This document shows positions 16,980-62,061 of a stretch of DNA of 64,000 nt, one piece after another. The number at the start of each line of letters is the position of its first letter. The stretch's first letter is position 1. The stretch is from assembly GCA_035221665.1 (NCBI GenBank), contig CM069137.1, positions 35,836,001 through 35,900,000 of the forward strand. Reading direction: 5' to 3'. Origin of the DNA: Okamejei kenojei (Eukaryota). The notes beneath the pieces are model-generated. The model saw only the letters and a list, made by a program, of their open reading frames with translations, was not told the origin of the DNA and did no database searches. A program made the translations under genes and the position numbers.

Positions 16980-17227
16980 TGGTCAGGGTTCAGGGAAACG
17001 AGAGATATAGACAGTGATGTGGAGAGATAAGGAACAATGAGTGAAAGATATGCAAAAAAGTATCGGTGATAAAGGGAACAAGCCATTGTAAGCTGTTTGT
17101 GGTGTGAAAATGAGAAGCTGGTGTGACTGGGGTGGAGGAGGGAGATAGAGATAGAGGGAATGCCAGGGCCCGAGGGCTGAGGGAGAGGTGGGAAGGGGAG
17201 GAGACAGCAAGGGTTAACAGAATTGTT

Positions 17228-18958
17228 CGTCACACCTCCTCCTACTTACCCCTGGACCATGACCCCACTGACAAACACCAGGCCACCATCTCGAGCACCA
17301 TAACCGACTTCATCAGCTCCGGCTCCCTACCCCACCCCGCCCCCCGAGCCTCCGACCTCATCGTTTCCCAGCCCCGCACGGCCCGATTTTACCTTCTCCC
17401 CAAAATCCACAAACCCGACTGCCCTGGCAGACCCATTGTCTCTGCCTGTTCGTGCCCCACCGAACACATTTCCACATACCTTGACGCCATCCTATCCCCC
17501 TTTGTTAAATCCCTCCCCACCTATGTTCAAGACACCTCAGACACTCTCCGTCGGCTCCGTGCATTCCATTCTCCAGGCCCCCATCCTCTCATCTTTACCA
17601 TGGACGTCCAGTCACTCTACACCTCCATCCCCCACCAGGACGGTCTCCAAGCCCTCCGGTTCTTCCTCGACCAGAGGAGCAACCCATACCCGTCCACTGA
17701 CACCCTCCTCCGCCTAGCAGAGTTGGTCCTCACCCTCAATAACTTCTCTTTTGATTCCTCCCATTTCCTCCAAACACAAGGCGTAGCTATGGGCACACGC
17801 ATGGGCCCCAGCTACGCTTGCCTCTTTGTTGGGTACGTCGAACAATCCTTGTTCTCGGCATACCAGGGCCCCATCCCCGACCTCTACCTCCGTTACATCG
17901 ACGACTGCTTTGGTGTCACCTCCTGCACCCACACACAACTGACTGACTTCATTCATTTCACCACCAACTTCCATCCAGCACTCAAATACACTTGGACCAT
18001 TTCCGACACTTCCCTACCATTCCTTGACCTCACCATCGCTATTGCAGGTGATACGCTCCTGACCGACATCCACTACAAACCCACTGACTCCCACAGCTAC
18101 CTGGACTACTCTTCCTCCCACCCTGCTTCCTGTAAGGACTCCATCCCCTATTCCCAATTCCTCTGTCTACGCCGCAATCTGCTCCCAGGATGAGGTGTTC
18201 CACACCAGGTCATCACAAATGGCCTCATTCTTCAGAGAACGGGGATTCCCCTCCCCCACTATTGATGAGGCTCGCACCAGGGTCTCCTCCATACCCCGCA
18301 ACACTGCCCTCGCTCCCCATTCCCCCCACTCGCAAACAGGGCAGAGTCCCCCTGGTCCTCACCTTTCACCCCACCAGCCGGCAAATACAACATATAGTCC
18401 TCCGCCAGTTTTGCCACCTCCAACGTGACCCCTCCACCCGCCACATCTTCCCATCTCCCCCCCTGTCTGCCTTCCGCAAAGACCGCTCCCTCCGCAACTC
18501 CCTTGTCAATTCTTCCCTCCCCTCCCACTCTACCCCTTCCCCGGGCACTTTCCCTTGCAACCGCAAGAAATGCAACACTTGTCCCTTCACCTCCCCTTCC
18601 ACTCCTTTCAGGGACCCAAGCAGTCCTTCCAGGTCCGACAGAGGTTCACCTGCACCTCCTCCAACCTCATCTACTGCATCCGCTGCTCCAGATGCCAGAT
18701 GATCTATATCGGTGAGACCAAGCGGAGGCTTGGCGATCGCTTCGCCGAACACCTCCGCTCGGTCCGCAATAACCAACCCGACCTCCCGGTGGCTCAGCAC
18801 TTCAACTCCCCCTCCCATTCCACATCCGACCTCTCGGTCCTGGGCCTCCTCCACGGCCAGAGTGAGCAACACCGCAAGCTGGAGGAACAGCACCTCATAT
18901 TCCGTTTGGGGAGTCTGCATCCTTTGGGCTTGAATATTGAATTTTCTCAATTCTGTTA
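17228..18958 (+). pseudogene. Penelope RT + GIY-YIG endonuclease, 5'-truncated and frameshifted
   Basis: FYLLPKIHK, GRPIVS, TMDVQSLYTSIP, GVAMG, LRYIDD, LPFLD, YKPT; CNRKKCNTC linker; LIYCIRCSRCQMIYIGET GIY-YIG motif; about three frameshifts. Confidence 0.95.
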
Positions 18959-20554: not shown

Positions 20555-21500
20555 ATGTCGAAGGTGCGGAGACAGTCTGCGAAGCCGGCTACAGAAGACC
20601 GCGGTGCTGCGGGTAGCGGACAGCTGTCCGAGTCACCTTCCAGGCCGCTGGTGTTGGAACCAGCGGCAGCAGACTTGGTGCTACAGGAAAGCACCGTGGC
20701 AGCCCCACCGGGGTGCAAAGCCACCCACAAGTCTGCCAGACCCGTAGACTTCGATGAGTCTGGGAAGCGTCTGCGGGCACCTTTCCCAGATGGAGCACCT
20801 GTTGGAGAGGTGCCTCCAGACTGATCTGCTTCAGAGGAGGGAGCAGTATCAGGCCGGGTCTCCACGGGAGCCCGCGCTAGCAGCACCTTACACAGGGCTG
20901 TGATGTGTCTCCCTCTCTGTAGAGGGGAGTACACGGAGTCAGCATTATCCTGACTCAGAGCAGGGAGGCACATCAGGGGAATACCCTAGGGAGCGAGGGG
21001 CCACAGTGCCTCTTTTGGCGTCTAGGTTCGCCATACCTACCCCAACCGGAGAGGCCTTGGATGAAGGAGCTGGCCACCACCATAAACTACCTGGCCTTGC
21101 ACCAGCTAAAGGACCAGGTTATGGAGGAGACCACCGGCCGCTATAATACATCTGTCAACTGTGCCTCCCTCCGCCATCAACCACACCACCTGGGCCCATA
21201 TTGGAGCAGGGGTAAGAGCCAGGAGGTTAAACACCAGAAAATTCTAAAATTACTGGCCTCAGGGGTAACAGCTTTTATCTATCGATGGCGGGCCACTGAC
21301 GGAGACACAGCAGGACGCTGTGGGGCTCCTCTGTAATGCCCTGTTCGAGATAAACTGTCTGCGCAAGCGCGCAATACGGCCTGCACTCAACCTGAAATTT
21401 GCAATGCTGTGCAAGGCCAGCAATGTACAGCCGGCCAACTACCTCTTTGGGGCAGACCTGCCGAAGCAGGTACGAGAGCTGGAGGACGAGGCCACCCCTA
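20555..21500 (+). pseudogene. DIRS gag-like ORF1 remnant
   Basis: ACCATG start at 20555; LFEINCLRKRAIRPALN...YLFGADLPKQVREL resembles the DIRS gag C-terminus; stops and frameshifts. Confidence 0.7.
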
Positions 21501-21609
21501 TGCCGCCTTCCACGCCAGGCGCAACCAGCCTAGGGGCTCAGGGACGGGAGGCAGACTCCAGCTGTCCCAAGGCGGGAGGCTGGAGGCCAGGACCACACAG
21601 GCAGTAACG

Positions 21610-23529
21610 CCCAAGGTAGGACATTCTAGTCCCATGTGGGACAATTTACACACCTCTAACATACAAGTAGGGGGGAGGCTAAAACATTTTTTGAATGAAT
21701 GGATTTGGATTACAGCAGACCCATTCATACTGCACAGTGTACAGGGGTTTAAAATTGAGTTCCTTCTTGACTCGTCACCATCCACTCAAAATTTACCAAA
21801 TCGCACATATGTGTTTCCACAACAGGAAAGATTTGAGATACAAGCTGAAATTCAGGCTTTACATGCAAAAGCAGTGATTCAAAGGCCTCGCCAGGAATCA
21901 CACCAATTTGTATCGAACATTTTTTCCAAGCAAAGGAAGGATGGAGGAAGTCATATTATCCTAGACTTGATGGAACTCAATACCCGTGTGCAGTATAAAC
22001 ATTTAAAAATGGACAACGTTGGTACAGCTATCCAGCTGGTTTCCAAAGGATGTTATATGGCTTGCACAGATCTAAAAGATGCTTACTACTCCGTACCAAT
22101 ACACAAGAAACACAGGAGATAATGTGTTGGGGCAGATGTGGCAATTCAAGGCGTTGCCAAATGGGCTGACCAGCTCCCAGACTTATTACAAAATTACTAA
22201 AACCAGTTCTGGGACTGCTACCAGCACAGAACCACATTGTGATGGCTTATTTGGATGATATTCTAATAATTGGGGACACAAAGGAATCAGCAATAGCATC
22301 TGTTTCAGCTACCAAACTCATGTTTGAGAGGCTGGGATTCGTAATCCATCCAGTTAAGTAAAAATTAACTCCAATCAGGGTAATTGATTACCTAGGGTTT
22401 ACAATCAACAATTGAAATGTCAGTGGCTCTGCCAGATGGCAAGCAATCAGACTTGATGGAAGCCTGCAATAAGCTAATTACTAGCCAGCAGCCAACAATC
22501 AGACAAGTAGCAAGCATAATTGGCAAGCTTGTGGCAGCCATTCCAGCTGTACGCTTCGGACCTTTGCACTACCAAAATTTACAACGTGCAAAGGAACGGG
22601 CCCTCAAATCTCACGCAGGCCAATTCGAGGAACATATGCACTTACCACCAGACACCATTGTGGAGTTACACTGGTGGGCTACCAATATACATCACTGTTC
22701 TAAGAAAATTTAAGTTGACACACCATCAGTAATAATACAAACCGATGCGAGTGGCCTGGGCTGGGGGGCAAAAGACACCAGCTCCAGCTGCGGGGGCAGA
22801 TGGAATGTGCAGGAGTCCTTAATCCTACAGCAATATGGCATCAACTACTTAGAGTTGTTGGGAGCACTCTATGGCTTAAAGGCTTATTGCAGCAATATGC
22901 ATCATGTTCACGTTCAACTACAGAATGACAACACCATGGCAGTGGCGTATGTCAATCACATGGGTGGAATAAAATCTGTATCATGTGATAAATTGGCAAA
23001 CCTCCTTTGGCATTGGTGTATTGCAAGGAACATTTGGGTCACGGCTATCTACCTGCCAGATAGATATAATATGGTGGCAGACACTAGATCACGGAAATTC
23101 AATTATAACACGGAATGGATGTTGAATCATGTCATGTTCACCGACATTGTTGCCCGATATGGCACGCCAGATATTGACTTGTTTGCCTCCAGGTTGAATC
23201 ACCAGTTACTCAAATATGTCTCATGGGAGCCAGACCCAGGGGCAGTAGCAGTTGATGCGTTCACACTGCATTGGGGAGGAATGTTCTTGTATGTTTTCCC
23301 TCCTTTTTGCCTCATCAGCCGATGCTTGGTCAAAATAAAGCAAGACAATGCCACAGGCATTTTGGTACTGCCAGATGGGCCTACGCAATCTTGGTTCCCA
23401 CTTGTCCTGGGAATCATGACACAGCCTTTGATGGCTGTCCCCAACAGCAGAGAGCTGCTGGTACACCCGGTAACGGGGAGCCATCATCCACTACATGACC
23501 AAATCAATTTGTTGGTTTGCAGATTCTGA
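21610..23529 (+). pseudogene. DIRS RT - RNase H - adenine-methyltransferase-like ORF
   Basis: VGGRLKHF..W, DLKDAYYSVPI, AYLDDIL (~22245), TDAS (22741), INYLEL, DNTMAVAYVNHMGG, ADTRSR; then DIDLFAS...DAFTLHW...YVFPPF...W..QSWF. Confidence 0.92.
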
Positions 23530-29669: not shown

Positions 29670-30463
29670 TGTTTAAGAAGAAACTGCAGATGCTGGAAAA
29701 ATCAAAGGTCGATAAAATTGCTTGAAAAACTCAGAGGGTGAGGCAACATCTATGGAGCGAAGGAAAATGTGACGTTTCGGGTCAAGACCATTCTTCAGAC
29801 TGATGTGGAGGTGGCGGGGGCAGGAAGAGAAAAGGAAGAGGTGGAGGCAGTGGGCTGTGGGAGAGCTGGGAAGGGGAGGGGTAAGAGGGAGAAAGCAAGG
29901 ACTATCTGAAATTGGAGAAGTCTGGGGTGCAAACTACCCAAGCAAAATATGAGGTGCTGCTTCTCCAATTTACGGTGGGACTCACTCCGGCCATGGAGGA
30001 GGCCCAGGACTGAAATGTCAGATTCAGAATGGGAAGTGGGGTTAAACTGCTGAGCCACTGGGAGATCAGGTTGGTTATTGCGAACTGAGCGATGGTGTTG
30101 GGTGAAGCAATCGCCAAGCCTACGCTTAGTCTCACCAATGTAAAGCAGCTGACACCTAGAGCAGCGGATGCAATAGATGAGATTGGAGGAGGTGCAGGTG
30201 AACCTCTGCCACACCTGGAAAGACAGCTTGGGTCCTTGGATGGAGTCAAGGGGGGAGGTAAAGCGACAAGTGTAGCATTTCCTGCAGTTGCAAGGGAAAC
30301 TATCAGGGGAGGGGGTGGTTTGGGTGGGAAGGGACGAATTGACCAGGGAGTTATGGAGGGAGCGTTCTCTGTGGAAAGCCGAAAGGGGAAGAGATGGGAA
30401 GATGTGGTCAGTGGTGTGATCCCATTAGAGATGACGAAAATGTTGGAGGGTTATCTATTGTAT
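29670..30463 (-). mobile_element. 5'-truncated Penelope insertion with degenerate 15-bp TSD, inside an older CR1-like 3' end
   Basis: LIYCIRCSRCQLLYIGETKRRLGD on -; pLTR with tail at left; ATCTACCCAATCTAT (29655-29669) vs ATTTACCCAGTCTAT (30464-30478). Confidence 0.85.
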
Positions 30464-55800: not shown

Positions 55801-58800
55801 AGGCTTTAATGGCAGTCAAGTAACATATCCTTCTACTAAATAATAGGATAGCTGAGACATTGTTCTGGGAGAGTGGTAGTGAATCACATATTTCGCTTGG
55901 GCAGCTTATAACCCAGCAGTATGAAGATAGACACAAAAAGCTGGAGTAACTCAGTCGGTCGGACAACATCTGTAGAGAAAAAGTCCCCCCTCCCCCTCCC
56001 CTCCCCTCTCCTCCCCTCTCCTCTCCTCTCCCCTCCCCTCCCCCTCCCCTCCCCTCCCCTCCCCCCCCCCCCCCCACCCCACCCCACACTAGTCGTATTG
56101 CTAGTTTCACTATTCATATCCCTTTGTTGTCACCTCTTCCAGAGCCTATAATGAACCATTGTGGGCTCCACCTCTCTTGAATCATCGGGCCGGCTCCGAT
56201 TCATTCTGTATGTTTTTATACCTCTAGTTTCTCTCTCGCCAGACTTTCTATCCGAAGAACTTGTAGTTGCATTTGCTGGAGTTATAGTGAGATGTCTTAT
56301 TCATGAGATGCCATCTTCCTTGCCCTTTTCTTTCTGTGTCTCCTCAGCTGCACACAAATTGACATCATGATTTGTCTGCGAAAACATCTCCAGAGGTTTT
56401 CACATTAGCACACACCTCACCAATACGACATCCACCCCCATTTGCAGCAGAATTGTGTGCCAACATTTCAAATGCATCAAACATTATTTTTGTTGTAAAT
56501 ATTTTATCGATACCAAACTTTTCAATGCATCTAAAAGTGATGAGACAAATCAAGTTTACTCATTTGTTAAACAAAAATTGCCTGAGTATATGTTTATAAG
56601 TAGGAATGTTACAATATTTTGAGATTTTAAAAATCAAGCCTGTAATTTATCTCATCAGATAAAGCATAAAAATAACTTTTATTTGATACCTAATTAACTT
56701 TCATATCTTCAGTATTAAAAAAACTATGGTCATTTTCATACTCAGCAATTAGCATCTTGTTCCCTATTGCTTTTCCATTGACACAAAAGCTGTGATGGGG
56801 GACAGTCAATTGACGTAAAAGCCCATAACTTTCTTTAAAATTAAGAGAACTGAATGAAATGTTCAGTAATTATAGATTGAAGCATTCTGAAACAAATATG
56901 AAACATCTTGCTTGGATGACCTGAATTAAAGCATATAATTAGACAGTTACCTCATTGTAGCTAATTACAAAATTGACCGTAAATAATAATAAACATCCAG
57001 ACTGCCTGGAAAATGTGATATTCTCAAGATCGGAACTTTAATATTATTGTATTATATGCTGTAAGTCCGTAACAGATAGGTAAAGGAATTACAATTTCTA
57101 GCAAAAGACAAAGTCTTCATGGAGAAGAAGATCAGCTGTTAGCTGGTACATTGACAGATCATAATCAGTAGCATCATCATGCTCCTCAAATTGAAGCCAA
57201 TAAGCAACTCTGTACACCTTGTTTTTCCTAAATTTTACAATTTTGGCATTGTAAACTACAGGTTTTTGCACTTCAAACCATGCATGACATGCTTTTCTGC
57301 CCACTACTTTCCCATTAAGAATGTCCTGTTGATCATCACATTTGGAGTAGTCCAAATTCGGATAATCTCTGAGAATGCTGTCTACATCAGTCTCTTTCAA
57401 TTTTTTCCCCAGTTTTTTCCTCTCTTTCGTGTCCTGGGCATGCTCCTTGTCTTTCTGTCGCTTGATGATTTCTGCTTTCAATTCCTTCTGTTTTTTCATC
57501 CTTCTGTTCCTCTGCACTCTCCCCAATTTCATTGCCGTACGGAGCACCTCCTCCCTATGTTGATCCTTGAGATTATCAAGGAAGTTGACTGTTCTATTCT
57601 TGCAGGCCCGCATCCTACATGACAAATAACTCATGGTGGCATTGGGAGATTTCAGTTTCGATGAGCTAAACATTCCCATTATCTCCTTTGCATCAATTTT
57701 GTGTGATCTTGCTGACGCAGTCTCCTCCTTCAGTTTCTCAGTTACATCAAGTTCAAAGTATTTACTATACTGCCTTTCCAACACAGTGATGACAGCTTGA
57801 AGACAGCTCCTCATCTTTGAACTGAACTGTGGAGGTACTGGTAGCTCCCGAAGTTTTGTCATCAAGATGCACCTCTTCACCGAAGAAATCTTCCCTTGCC
57901 AATATCAAGTTCTCTGGAGTTTCTGTGGCTTCCTTTAGAGCAGCAATCACCCCTTTAACCACATTGATACCATCAACATGGTTGATCTGATTCCGGCTTC
58001 AAGTGTAGAAGTCATGTAGCTTCTTCCAGTCTGACTTCCCAGTCAGATATTTGCCAAGTAAGCCTAATATCTGAAGTTCGACATTTGCTTCCGCCTGGGT
58101 GAAGTCATGGAGGATGGCGTGTCTCAAACCCCCACAGGATGATCCGCTATTCAGCAGGGCAACAAAGTAATCATAATGTTCTATGTGCTTATCACTAATA
58201 TGGAAAAGTATATGTAATCTGTTGCCATGATTCTGTGAGAGGACACCTCGGGGGATGGTCCTTTCATCCAAAAATACAACAAATCCTTTTGGGTCCCCTT
58301 TTCCATTCTTGTACTGAAGTTTGTTCATCTGCATTATGACATTTCCTGCTATTCAGTCCTTCCCAAACAGGAATTTTCCTCTGGATTGTTTCTGCATTTT
58401 GAAGGCTGAGTGTATTGATGTTGCAATGGAGTCAAGAGGATGCAAGTGGCAGTAGAGCTCATTCAAAGATTTACTCCACTCACTGTTCACCATCCTAATA
58501 ATTAGCTGCACAACTGTCACTCAGTGTAATTGTAATGTTGTCTATTATCTTTTGCCTGGTGTCTTGGAAATCCGGTTGCTCATTGAAATAAGGGTAAGTT
58601 TCACACAAATTGTCAACAGCATCGCAAATATGTTGTGCAAAGTCCTCAGCAGCCCCACCAGCCAATTCACCGACTGCTGCAGAAAGACATTCATTTGTGG
58701 TGGTGAAGTGTACACTGTTAATATGAGTCTCTTCCTGGGTGGTTGCATCAAAACCAACAGTCAAATCCTTTGTAGTTAGGATTATCTCTGCTGTCTGTAA

Positions 58801-59017
58801 AGGGCCTATCACACTTGAGCATCATTTGTGCGTCAAGCAGGTGGCGTGCGATGATTTTGTGAATCCCAAAATCCAGCAGCGACACGCGCTATCGCCATGC
58901 GTCAATGAGCTTGTATTGCACGCTATGCGCGCATCACGTACGCAACACGACACGTGCATCATGCATCATGACGCATAAAGTATGTTGCGTAAATGACACC
59001 CAAGTGGGATAGGCCCT
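58801..59017. mobile_element. Harbinger/PIF-type MITE with TAA TSD
   Basis: TAA-AGGGCCTATCACACTTG ... CAAGTGGGATAGGCCCT-TAA; removal restores ELGAIAELQTAEII in the transposase. Confidence 0.9.
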
Positions 59018-59195
59018 TAACTCAGCAATAGCTCCCAATTCGCAGGCCATAACTTCAACTGTACTGCGTCAAGGAACACGATCCAGATTAAGTCCATTCC
59101 GCTTGTAGAACGGGCTTATCAGGATTGGAATGTTTGCCGAGGGAGTTTTGTTTACAATACAGTCAAACACATGCATCCTTGCTGTTGAGGAGTAA

Positions 59196-59730
59196 AGGGC
59201 TTGTCCCACTTGCATGCGATTGCATGCATTTGGCGAGACCAAACGTGATCGCTTGAGGTGTACGGGCACCATATGGCCGCGCGGGGCCGGTCCCACTTAG
59301 AAGCGTGGAGTTGTGCGGGGCTGGTCCCCACATCGCGCGGGGCTCCGAAAATCTGACAGTGTCCAAAATCTTTGCGCGCCAACTGCCGGTTGGCATGCAG
59401 GCGCATTGCGGATGTACGCAGCGTCTTGACAGCATACGCAGAGCCTTGACCGTGAACACAGCATCTTGATGGCGTACGCCTAGCGCGTGGCATTGCGCGA
59501 TGATATCAACGCCCGGCATGGCATTGCGTGATAACGTCACCGCCCGACGCCGTGCGATGCCCAAATTTAGTCGGCCTGCCTCCCGCCCAGCTGATTAGTA
59601 AGTATGATGCAAATGATGTAATGCGCGAACAGTGCAAACTTAGCACAAACCTAGCACAAACCTAGCACAAACTCCGTTTCCGTTTGGTCGCACCAAATGC
59701 ATGCAATCGCATGCAAGTGGGGCAGATCCT
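59196..59730. mobile_element. Harbinger/PIF-type MITE
   Basis: TIR core CCCACTTGCATGCGATTGCATGCATTTGG and its inverse; flanks TAA/TTA; removal restores MDQKTYSSTARMHVF. Confidence 0.88.
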
Positions 59731-60792
59731 TTAGTCTTCTGGTCCATCTTTGACTTGACAATACTAGCAGCCTCCAGAGTTCCGATTGTTTCTTTGAGGA
59801 CAAGATTGTCAATTTTGAGACGTTGCACATCCTCTTCCCTGTCCTTTAGTTTTTCATGAACTTTTCTATACTGGTGAATTGAAACAGTACTCCTCTTTTT
59901 ATTACTGCCACGGAACTTGAGCAATTGGCTGTGTGCTTTTTTAAGTCTCAGAAACTCTGCCTTGGTTTCAGCAAGCTCTCATGCCAACGTATTCCCACGT
60001 AATTTGGTTTTGAGTTCCTGAATCTTTCTGTCCTTTAAATCTATTTGGTTTTGCTTTCTCTTTAAGGCATGATTAACTACACGTTTGGGATTTTCAACTG
60101 TGCCCTAAGTTCACTGATCTTTTTTGCAATACTTTAGTGCAATAGTGACCTTGGATGTAGACAGAAAGCTTAGCCTTTTCTTCATTTTCTGTTTCCTTGG
60201 TGAAAGACTTAAAAGTTCTCTGCTACACCTTATTGAAACACTAGATGTCGATGGCATTGTTTCAGGTGAGGCAGCAGCTGTCGTTGGCGTTGCTCGATTC
60301 AGTGGAGGATGCAGACTATGACTGTCATCGCCCATGTCCTCAGTGTCTTGAAATATGGGCACTTGGCTTTCGGCTGATGTCAAAGATTCAGGATCTTGAG
60401 CACCAGGCGGTGGAATGTCATCTAAAGAAACGTGTTGACTGCCTTCTAGAAGTTTAAAAATGTCATCACAAATTTTCATAAATGTTCCAAGTTCCTTGGG
60501 ATTGCTGATTTTTTTTAACATAAGCAAAGTCCAGTTAACGAGAGTCCTCACCCTTGAGTTAACAGCCGCAAATGAATAGCCTTCTGCATCCGACAAAGAG
60601 AAATGTGAACTCAGCCGTCTCTCAGTTTCAGACCGTCTTTTTCCAAACGAGGTATACCAGTACAAGATGTGTCCATTTCTAAGATCCCTCTTAGACTCGG
60701 GCATGACAGAGAAATTCACTTCAAGGTGAACTCTAGCTATGCCAGGCTGGGCATTTGGATTGACAATTTTGTATTTCTTCTTCGGAGGACAT

Positions 60793-61677
60793 CTGTTTAA
60801 ATGTAAAGAAAAAAAAACTGAACAGCATTAACAGAAACAAGTTATTATTTGCAGTTTTAGAAAAAAAATGTAAAAATGATTTTGTTCAACAAAATGCCTA
60901 ACACAAGTTAAACATTAAAACAAATAGTAAATACCCAACAAAAAAAAATCATATTCATCAGTGTCATCAAATAAATTAAATTTGTCTAAATTCAATTAGT
61001 AGATCTAAACATCTATCCCATTCTTAAGAAAAGGCTATTTTTTTTAATAGCCAAAGTATCCAAATAACAAACTGATCCAATTCACACAAGAATTCACAAT
61101 ATAACATGATTTTTAAATCTCACCTTGTCATGAATTTCTATGCCAAATGGAAGGAATTGAATGTTTAATACATTTTACTCTGTTCGTTTATAGCACTGCA
61201 GCAGGCAAGGTTCATTTTACACAGACATTTGTTCAAAATCCAGTAAAATCCACTCAAGATAATCAAAATCATACTTTTCTGCACAATCATGTCATATGAA
61301 CATCTAAATTATCTATATTTTGTGTTATTGTGTATCCATGATTAATATTTTCATATCTGACTAAAACTATGTACTGTGGAAGTTTTCAGTCAGATATTTA
61401 GTATGAAATATTGATCATGGATAAACAATAACACAAAATATAGAAGATATAGATGTTCTTATGACATGATTGTGCAAAAAATAATGAATTTGATTATTTT
61501 GAGAGGGGATGTTTCTGGATTGAGATGGATCAGAATGTGGTCACTGCCATGATTTAAGCCCTGATATCATCTGGCAACGCACGGCCGATATCGGGGCCTA
61601 AATAACATATTTTGCATCATCAGATTAAAATGAAACAGCACCAAAAAGCAAGATAAGATGTTAAATAGACGACTTAC
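60793..61677 (-). other. Putative 5'-UTR intron of the hAT-like transposase
   Basis: AAG|GTAAGT donor at 61677 and T-rich tract ...TTTAAACAG|ATG at 60793/60792. Confidence 0.5.
61253..61503. repeat. ~250-bp AT-rich imperfect palindrome
   Basis: TGCACAATCATGTCATA...TATATTTTGTGTTATTG mirrored by CAATAACACAAAATATA...TATGACATGATTGTGCA. Confidence 0.85.
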
Positions 61678-62061
61678 CTTTTGTTTTCTCCTGCACTTGC
61701 GATCCGTGATGTTGATGGCGCTGAAGGCGTTAGAAGTCGCATTTAACTTCAATCCAGCGATGCAATTGACTAGCCACTGTTTTTAAAAGAAACGGGAACG
61801 GGATTGCAGAACAAATTTTCTTCATCAGCTTGTAGTCTGAGCAAATCGCTCTCCGACAACCAATACAAACCTATATTTTAATCTCCCCCCCCCCCTGCCT
61901 CTAGGAATGCACGCACAGGCAGTGGGCAGATCTGGAGCGCCATGATTGTAGGATTTTGTAACAACTCTATTACAAGTGCTGAAATATCTTATGTGGCTAA
62001 CTTTACTTTGCATTCTGACAATTTGATAATTTGTGGTTATTACATTGGGATAGAGGAACCA

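Follow-up and report, generated by a model that had tools for sequence, protein, structure and literature searches.

A conserved Spindlin-like domain at the C-terminus of a hAT-like transposase family, a candidate reader of histone tails

The window, the whole stretch of 64,000 nucleotides analysed here, contains a dead cut-and-paste transposon (Table 1) whose ends were set by comparing 20 other copies. Its inverted repeats are short (~16 bp), their first bases being TAG. The flanking heptamers TTATAAG and TTACAAG suggest a 7-bp target-site duplication, and other copies point the same way. Both ends are present in 11 of a set of 30 short copies picked by genome order, and nine of these carry a 7-bp duplication (6 or 7 of 7 positions identical); of the remaining two, one fits an 8-bp duplication and one fits none. 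Among longer copies with both ends, three fit a 7-bp duplication at 6/7 and one does not.

The transposase gene is interrupted by frameshifts right after the likely start codon, near 58498 and near 57860, together with several stops and two insertions, as seen when P0002, an intact relative of ~960 aa, is aligned to the window by tblastn. P0002 maps to 60785-57101 in five pieces, and the three core and C-terminal pieces are 67-69% identical. Two nested MITEs, mutually related, each with a 3-bp duplication and 180 bp apart, lie within the gene; both are absent from all nine other copies that span both sites intact, and their ends are presumably Harbinger-like. The long internal inverted repeat is present in other copies, including a short derivative described below. 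Elsewhere in the window, further broken frames contain reverse-transcriptase motifs: those at 21337-23526 (plus strand) also have RNase H-like motifs and resemble a DIRS-type retroelement, and those at 17114-18956 (plus strand) and 29798-30450 (minus strand) also have GIY-YIG-like motifs and resemble Penelope elements.

Table 1. Features of the transposon copy, in window positions. Residue numbers refer to P0001 unless P0002 is named.
Feature	Position	Strand	Remarks
Whole decayed hAT-like DNA transposon, 5369 bp including two nested MITEs	56601..61969	-	Copies aligned to window
Apparent target-site duplication, left copy, TTATAAG, 7 bp	56594..56600	+	6/7 identical to right copy
Apparent target-site duplication, right copy, TTACAAG, 7 bp	61970..61976	+	
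3' terminal inverted repeat, starts TAG	56601..56616	+	12/16 bases equal the other end
5' terminal inverted repeat	61954..61969	-	
Broken transposase gene	57098..60792	-	tblastn of P0002 on window; start context from copies
RNase H-like DDE core with helical insertion	57566..58809	-	Predicted Hermes fold; FDATT (D412), D489, CxxH (C514, H517), E766, P0002 numbering
Long K/R/E-rich linker helix, catalytic core to Tudor domain	57386..57565	-	P0002 model 807-864; limits approximate
Cap, two short helices ahead of barrel	57314..57385	-	22% mean pairwise identity, poorly conserved
Spindlin-like Tudor domain, aa 198-268 of P0001 (last 71 aa)	57098..57313	-	
Candidate cage	W209 (57278-80), Y218 (57251-53), Y235 (57200-02), Y248 (57161-63)	-	
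Other kept residues of Tudor domain		-	H207, D258, D264
Nested MITE 1, TAA duplication	58801..59017	.	
Nested MITE 2, TAA/TTA duplication	59196..59730	.	
Internal 101-nt inverted repeat, 5' non-coding part	61250..61506	.	88% complementary

The transposase is classed as hAT-like because the predicted structure of P0002 (pLDDT 86) folds like Hermes, which bears out the class proposed in the first-pass annotation. With this model, VIA returns Hermes in six rows at Z 16.9-20.0 and the next family at Z 11.1; Foldseek returns Hermes at E 4e-7 and the P-element transposase, which is absent from the best 50 VIA rows, at E 2e-5. The CxxH motif and the D, D, E triad, which we take to be a hAT signature, are present in the family, and the catalytic positions are near invariant (D412 in 56/57, D489 in 58/59, C514 and H517 each in 59/59, E766 in 64/64). 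Pfam searches of 17 full-length relatives gave no transposase, BED, hAT dimerisation or THAP match (0/17). In the place of other hATs' BED finger, residues 16-106 of P0002 form a confidently predicted helical N-terminal domain that has no Pfam match.

Transposase relatives number 578 cluster representatives at E 0.001. Named records of 930-1030 aa come from starfish, loach, limpet, Hydra and sea spider, and a tubeworm holds relatives as shorter pieces. One sea-spider record, P0037, carries the name 'bric-a-brac 2' and joins the transposase to a BTB domain (PF00651), probably through a gene-model fusion. A candidate label for the window element is hATw (Repbase/Dfam), which we take to be an animal hAT subgroup with 7-bp duplications; the papers found that use this name leave it undefined, and a definition of hATw was not found in the available portions of PMC8721813, PMC4455052, PMC12905397 and PMC13465017.

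A protein search of the host genome gave at least 148 matches, the best 143 of 4213 candidates having been scored, and the many open frames in it reflect this ranking by score. Many of the matches are a non-autonomous deletion derivative of 1.85-1.9 kb (20/20 of the copies examined), which retains both ends and the C-terminal module (aa 169-268) and joins window position 60746 to 57397. The 21-nt junction pattern has 319 exact matches, from which the derivative probably numbers about a thousand copies. These differ by ~4-5% from their majority sequence and decay neutrally (omega ~1.08; 9/27 frames open, 3/30 having been dropped for low identity). A functional Tudor-only mini-gene in the derivative was rejected: the junction shifts the start codon of the transposase to another frame, and although most copies have a further ATG in the right frame, they decay neutrally. 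Poly(A) reads from a related organism (one run) fall on the element ends, and 13 cross the derivative junction, 12 of them in one direction; with the strand uncalibrated (host-gene control, 0 reads), these reads are given no weight. Runs of related organisms contain other deletions, one that keeps the domain (57333 to 61021) and several that drop it.

The C-terminal domain lies in P0001, a frame of 268 aa from stop to stop (57098-57904, minus strand), of which 254 aa (57862-57101) are in the transposase frame; the frameshift near 57860 severs the remainder. The first-pass annotation had placed a domain of the Spin/Ssty type at the end of a 260-aa open frame, after a K/R/E-rich helical linker. 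The residues it picked out do end the frame (57101-57313, followed by the stop codon 57098-57100) and the linker is predicted as one long helix.

Across the family, this conserved fusion of a transposase and a Spindlin-like domain is real. The domain is carried by 35/37 relatives of at least 800 aa, including those of starfish, limpet, Hydra and fish, and by 83/91 relatives that contain the catalytic-E motif and at least 150 aa after it; the other eight have apparently lost it by truncation or frameshift. It is always single, none of 192 proteins having more than one domain match. A search for longer proteins with the domain profile returned at least 10, four of them new. Hosts include cnidarian, mollusc, echinoderm, annelid and fish.

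From 120 proteins that reach the C-terminus, 104 complete domains were aligned and 16 incomplete ones dropped; their median identity to the window copy is 39%. Strongly kept residues are H207, W209, Y218, G220, Y231, Y235, W236, D247, Y248, D258 and D264. An aromatic residue occupies position W209 in 102/104, Y218 in 103/104, Y235 in 104/104 and Y248 in 92/104, H207 is kept in 99/104 and D258 in 101/104, and D264 is kept in 89/104 with E in a further 11. With a mean pairwise identity of 41%, the domain is better conserved than the linker (32%), the N-terminal parts (25%) and the cap (22%), and is itself surpassed by the catalytic core. It has a median net charge of -4, which makes it acidic, and a basic loop at 223-230. 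Of the MYQLxxD match to Spindlin read at first pass, only the L and the D that follows hold across the family; MYQL is the reading of the window subfamily: in the 104 relatives these columns hold K36/M22/A13, F30/Y28, E45/A22/Q18 and L83.

Searched singly, the window sequence matched only PRP3 in the PDB (phmmer, E 0.04 or worse) and only Tudor-knot in Pfam (E 2.5), with no Spin-Ssty match. When a profile of 62 domains was searched against 177,635 PDB sequences, the best 17 rows were all Spindlins (E 2e-4 to 2.7e-3 with two repeats added together; taken singly, no repeat among the matches listed does better than E 0.07); the next row had E 0.23, with noise onward. The host has two Spindlin genes of three repeats each (L041-L046; C3 and C28), and along 73 aa of repeat 2 one of them shows no difference from records of skate and electric ray, which makes a skate or ray the probable host. 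Against host repeats 1 and 2, the domain profile scored 10.6-17.1 bits, and for each of the four none of 1000 shuffles scored as high, the tightest margin being that of repeat L044 (10.6 bits against a best shuffle of 10.5). HHalign of the domain with Spindlin repeat 2 scored 26.6, compared with a maximum of 17.2 in 50 column shuffles. The likeness to Spindlin suspected from the sequence thus exceeds chance.

In HHalign, the first three strands match repeat 1 at 95% (42 columns), and repeat 2 is matched at 68% (65 columns). In the reverse direction, the repeat 1 profile exceeded 8 bits on 53/104 domains and on 0/1040 shuffles, the repeat 2 profile did so on 3/104 domains and the repeat 3 profile on none. 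The parts with the H3-anchoring acids, namely the C-terminal helix and the D...(G)DL tail, have a counterpart in repeat 2 alone, and few positions of the domain are better conserved.

The domain model (95 aa, built on 103 sequences, pLDDT 92) consists of four strands, a helix and a fifth strand. In VIA its best 22 rows are Spindlins, aligned to Spindlin1 residues 123-193 (repeat 2) at Z 7.1-8.2, with a best match of 2.2 Å rmsd over 66 residues; by the fold tool's own note, Z 7-8 is a middling score. Next come two methyl-lysine readers, the RDM15 Tudor with H3K4me1 (Z 7.0) and BAHCC1 with H4K20me1 (Z 6.7), and TraI, which is not a histone reader, at Z 6.3-6.6. A wide fold search of 48,161 representatives gave a tie between RDM15 (7.0), TraI (6.6) and Spindlin-4 (6.5), with TnsB at Z 5.1. 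In Foldseek, the highest query TM-scores among the matches listed are those of Spindlins, up to 0.56. The profile and fold checks suggested at first pass divide: the PDB profile search puts Spindlins first and VIA puts them at the top, whereas the Spin-Ssty cut-off of Pfam was not reached and Foldseek gave no row below E 0.001.

Pfam matches are weak and of one kind. By member, the 62 domains matched PTM/DIR17 Tudor in nine cases, BAHCC1 Tudor in five, Agenet in four, Spin-Ssty in three (E ≤1, best 0.017) and LBR Tudor in two, so that the five families matching at least two members are all Tudor-type. PF21743 and PF21744 each reached a best E of ~8e-4, the window copy scoring 11.1 bits against a PF21743 cut-off of 27.2. 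The 25-bit gathering cut-off of Spin-Ssty (PF02513) was reached by no tested family sequence, and a PF02513 scan of the genome found six repeats above it, all in the two host genes and none in a transposon copy. Conversely, in a search with a host Spindlin repeat the best 120 of 183 matches were all PF02513, the named ones all vertebrate, with no transposase fusion among them. An Atlas feature search with a starfish homologue placed an unnamed cluster, PTM/DIR17 and Spin/Ssty at the top (0.84-0.86), which serve as leads only.

Taken together, a Tudor fold of the C-terminal domain is well supported, and Spindlin as its nearest relative is moderately supported. Since it falls below the Pfam cut-off and is present in a single copy, the domain is Spindlin-like and not a member of the Spin/Ssty family. 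Of the Spin/Ssty module first proposed, the Tudor character and the closeness to Spindlins by profile and fold survive, and membership does not.

According to the available text of PMC3967050, the K4me3 cage of Spindlin1 is made of F141, W151, Y170 and Y177; E142 and D189 hold the H3 amino group and D184 holds R2, and repeat 1 provides a methyl-arginine pocket. HHalign pairs H207 with H139, W209 with F141, Y218 with W151, Y235 with Y170, D258 with D184 and D264 with D189 (Spindlin residues numbered as in the rat protein). This alignment contains an insert of nine residues, and in it Y177 falls opposite S251. In the model, Y248 lies on the fourth strand, three residues before the strand end, and from what we take to be the Spindlin strand limits it presumably corresponds to Y177. 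The E142 position is aromatic in 55/104 relatives and not acidic in most. Here, W209, Y218, Y235 and Y248 may form an aromatic cage like that of Spindlin1, and D258 and D264 could play the part of D184 and D189, gripping R2 and the free N-terminus of H3. The first-pass annotation had made its proposal depend on conservation of the aromatic positions, and among relatives all four are indeed aromatic in 89/104, with both acids kept as well in 85/104. As the acids that read the free H3 N-terminus are kept, H3K4me would be the likeliest mark.

CpG-island-like sequence beside insertions was used as a proxy for target choice. At the first 40 sites, CpG islands were found in 10/40 compared with 1/40 controls (p 0.007). 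On inspection, several of these 'islands' turned out to be retroelements that had escaped masking, or an exon encoding zinc fingers, and the masked centre contained four of the matches in controls; with a larger repeat library, the first set gave 7/40. The next 40 sites gave 5/40 compared with 2/40 controls (p 0.43), or 6/40 controls when whole control windows were counted (p 1.0). CpG o/e was higher at sites of the first set (p 0.006) and not of the second (p 0.13). CpG-island targeting was rejected, the excess of the first set not being replicated in the second, and the insertion-site comparison suggested at first pass gave no repeatable signal by this proxy. Density on four large chromosomes is 0.09-0.15 per Mb, the genome mean being 0.116. 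The test is weak because copies are old, selection acts against promoter insertions, masking is incomplete and there is no Tudor-less control, the pattern of the MITE intended for it having given 12 matches; it argues only against strong surviving promoter targeting.

With modest confidence, we favour a reading in which the domain is a methyl-lysine reader of histone tails that would hold the transposase on marked chromatin. The single Spindlin-repeat-2-like domain would bind a methylated lysine on a histone tail, the helix of ~58 residues could act as an arm between the catalytic core and the nucleosome, and the transpososome would be kept on marked nucleosomes, for target choice or for access to the donor copy. 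For so acidic a domain, a basic peptide is a more fitting ligand than DNA. A precedent for tethering is the chromodomain of a Gypsy element (cited in the available text of bioRxiv 2021.11.30.470311), and the same text argues, for acetyl readers, that targeting of active promoters is costly to the host.

A somewhat unlikely alternative is a peptide reader whose ligand is not a histone mark at the target but a motif, methylated or basic, in some host protein or in the transposase, serving in cofactor recruitment, complex assembly or the blunting of silencing. Consistent with such a ligand, Spindlin1 structures among the matches hold SPINDOC peptides and HBx, insertion bias was not found, and by profile the first three strands are nearer the repeat with the methyl-arginine pocket; the highly conserved H3-anchoring helix and D...(G)DL tail, matched by repeat 2 only, weigh on the other side.

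An SH3-like barrel serving DNA binding or oligomerisation, on the model of the retroviral integrase C-terminal domain or the N-terminal barrel of Tn7 TnsB, with aromatics that are structural, seems quite improbable to us. Its net acidic charge, a profile search that gives Spindlins alone below E 0.2 and the uniformly Tudor-type Pfam matches all speak against it, even if the domain scores with TraI and TnsB in the fold searches at the Z values given above, and contains the basic loop; moreover, with no Pfam BED or hAT dimerisation domain in the 17 relatives, the family needs something else for these jobs. We consider it very unlikely that the domain plays no part in transposition, whether as what is left of a captured Tudor or as a resemblance by chance. 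Scores under the curated cut-offs tested and the eight of 91 relatives that do without it would fit such a remnant, but the domain is better conserved than its flanks across cnidarian, mollusc, echinoderm, annelid and fish hosts, and its H, W, Y, W and D are near invariant.

Reader-guided integration is established for chromodomain retrotransposons. If the methyl-lysine reading is true, an animal DNA transposase lineage would extend it to cut-and-paste elements, probably directed to an active mark. A bolder version is unlikely in our estimate: a widespread animal hAT-like lineage in which a single-repeat H3K4me reader would choose or license sites, its mobile repeats being sister to, or the source of, the triplicated vertebrate Spindlin. 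The family supplies a stand-alone domain of 70 aa that is simple to assay, intact enzymes of 930-1030 aa for transposition tests, candidate outgroups for tracing how Spindlin repeats arose, and possibly a built-in targeting arm for gene-delivery tools.

The fusion is apparently new to print: no Spindlin-like domain in a DNA transposase was found in the literature searched, with subscription journals and Repbase Reports outside the search. A survey of reader-transposon fusions lists mostly PHD and Chromo, including hAT-Chromo fusions in the sponge Ephydatia; its main text, in the part available, has no word beginning 'spin', and its supplement, outside the search, may list Tudor fusions (bioRxiv 2021.11.30.470311). 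A 2025 paper presents Gypsy-10_Ec32 of a brown alga as the earliest report of a Tudor domain in a transposon, as far as its authors know (PMC12477816, available portion).

Compared with Hermes and other hATs (PDB 6DWZ, 4D1Q), the window family shares a predicted RNase H-like DDE core with a helical insertion (Z 20.0, rmsd 3.6 Å, 336 residues), the CxxH motif and short inverted repeats. It differs in having a long N-terminal coiled coil and a C-terminal arm with a Tudor domain, and in giving no BED finger or hAT dimerisation match in Pfam. Target-site duplications of hATs are usually 8 bp, although groups with 5, 6 and 7 bp are known (PMC12730594, available text), whereas those of the window family are mostly 7 bp.

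With repeat 2 of Spindlin1-4 (PF02513; 7E9M, 4H75, 4MZG, 4UY4), the domain shares a predicted barrel, helix and last strand over 63-68 residues, the GxxIxHxW start, three aligned cage positions and the D184- and D189-like acids. Spindlin has three packed repeats, and the transposase domain one copy, with ~9 extra residues between the third strand and D258, no equivalent of E142, 13-16% identity, a score under the Pfam cut-off and fusion to a transposase. The Tudors of PTM/DIR17 (PF21743), RDM15 (7DE9) and BAHCC1 (PF21744, 8YE8) have the same fold, at Z 6.7-7.0. PTM/DIR17 and BAHCC1 are the commonest weak Pfam matches (9 and 5 of 62), and PTM/DIR17 is an Atlas neighbour (0.85, a lead only). RDM15 aligns over 57 residues, compared with 63-68 for Spindlin, and unlike Spindlin the RDM15 and BAHCC1 structures are absent at E ≤10 from the PDB profile search.

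Chromodomain Gypsy elements (MAGGY), Gypsy-10_Ec32 with its C-terminal Tudor, and the hAT-Chromo fusions of Ephydatia share with the window family a reader fused to an integrase or transposase, and in the Gypsy cases the reader is C-terminal, as in the window-element transposase. These known reader-bearing elements are retrotransposons or narrow-range chromodomain fusions, whereas the window family carries a Spindlin-type Tudor domain on a DNA transposase, in several animal phyla.
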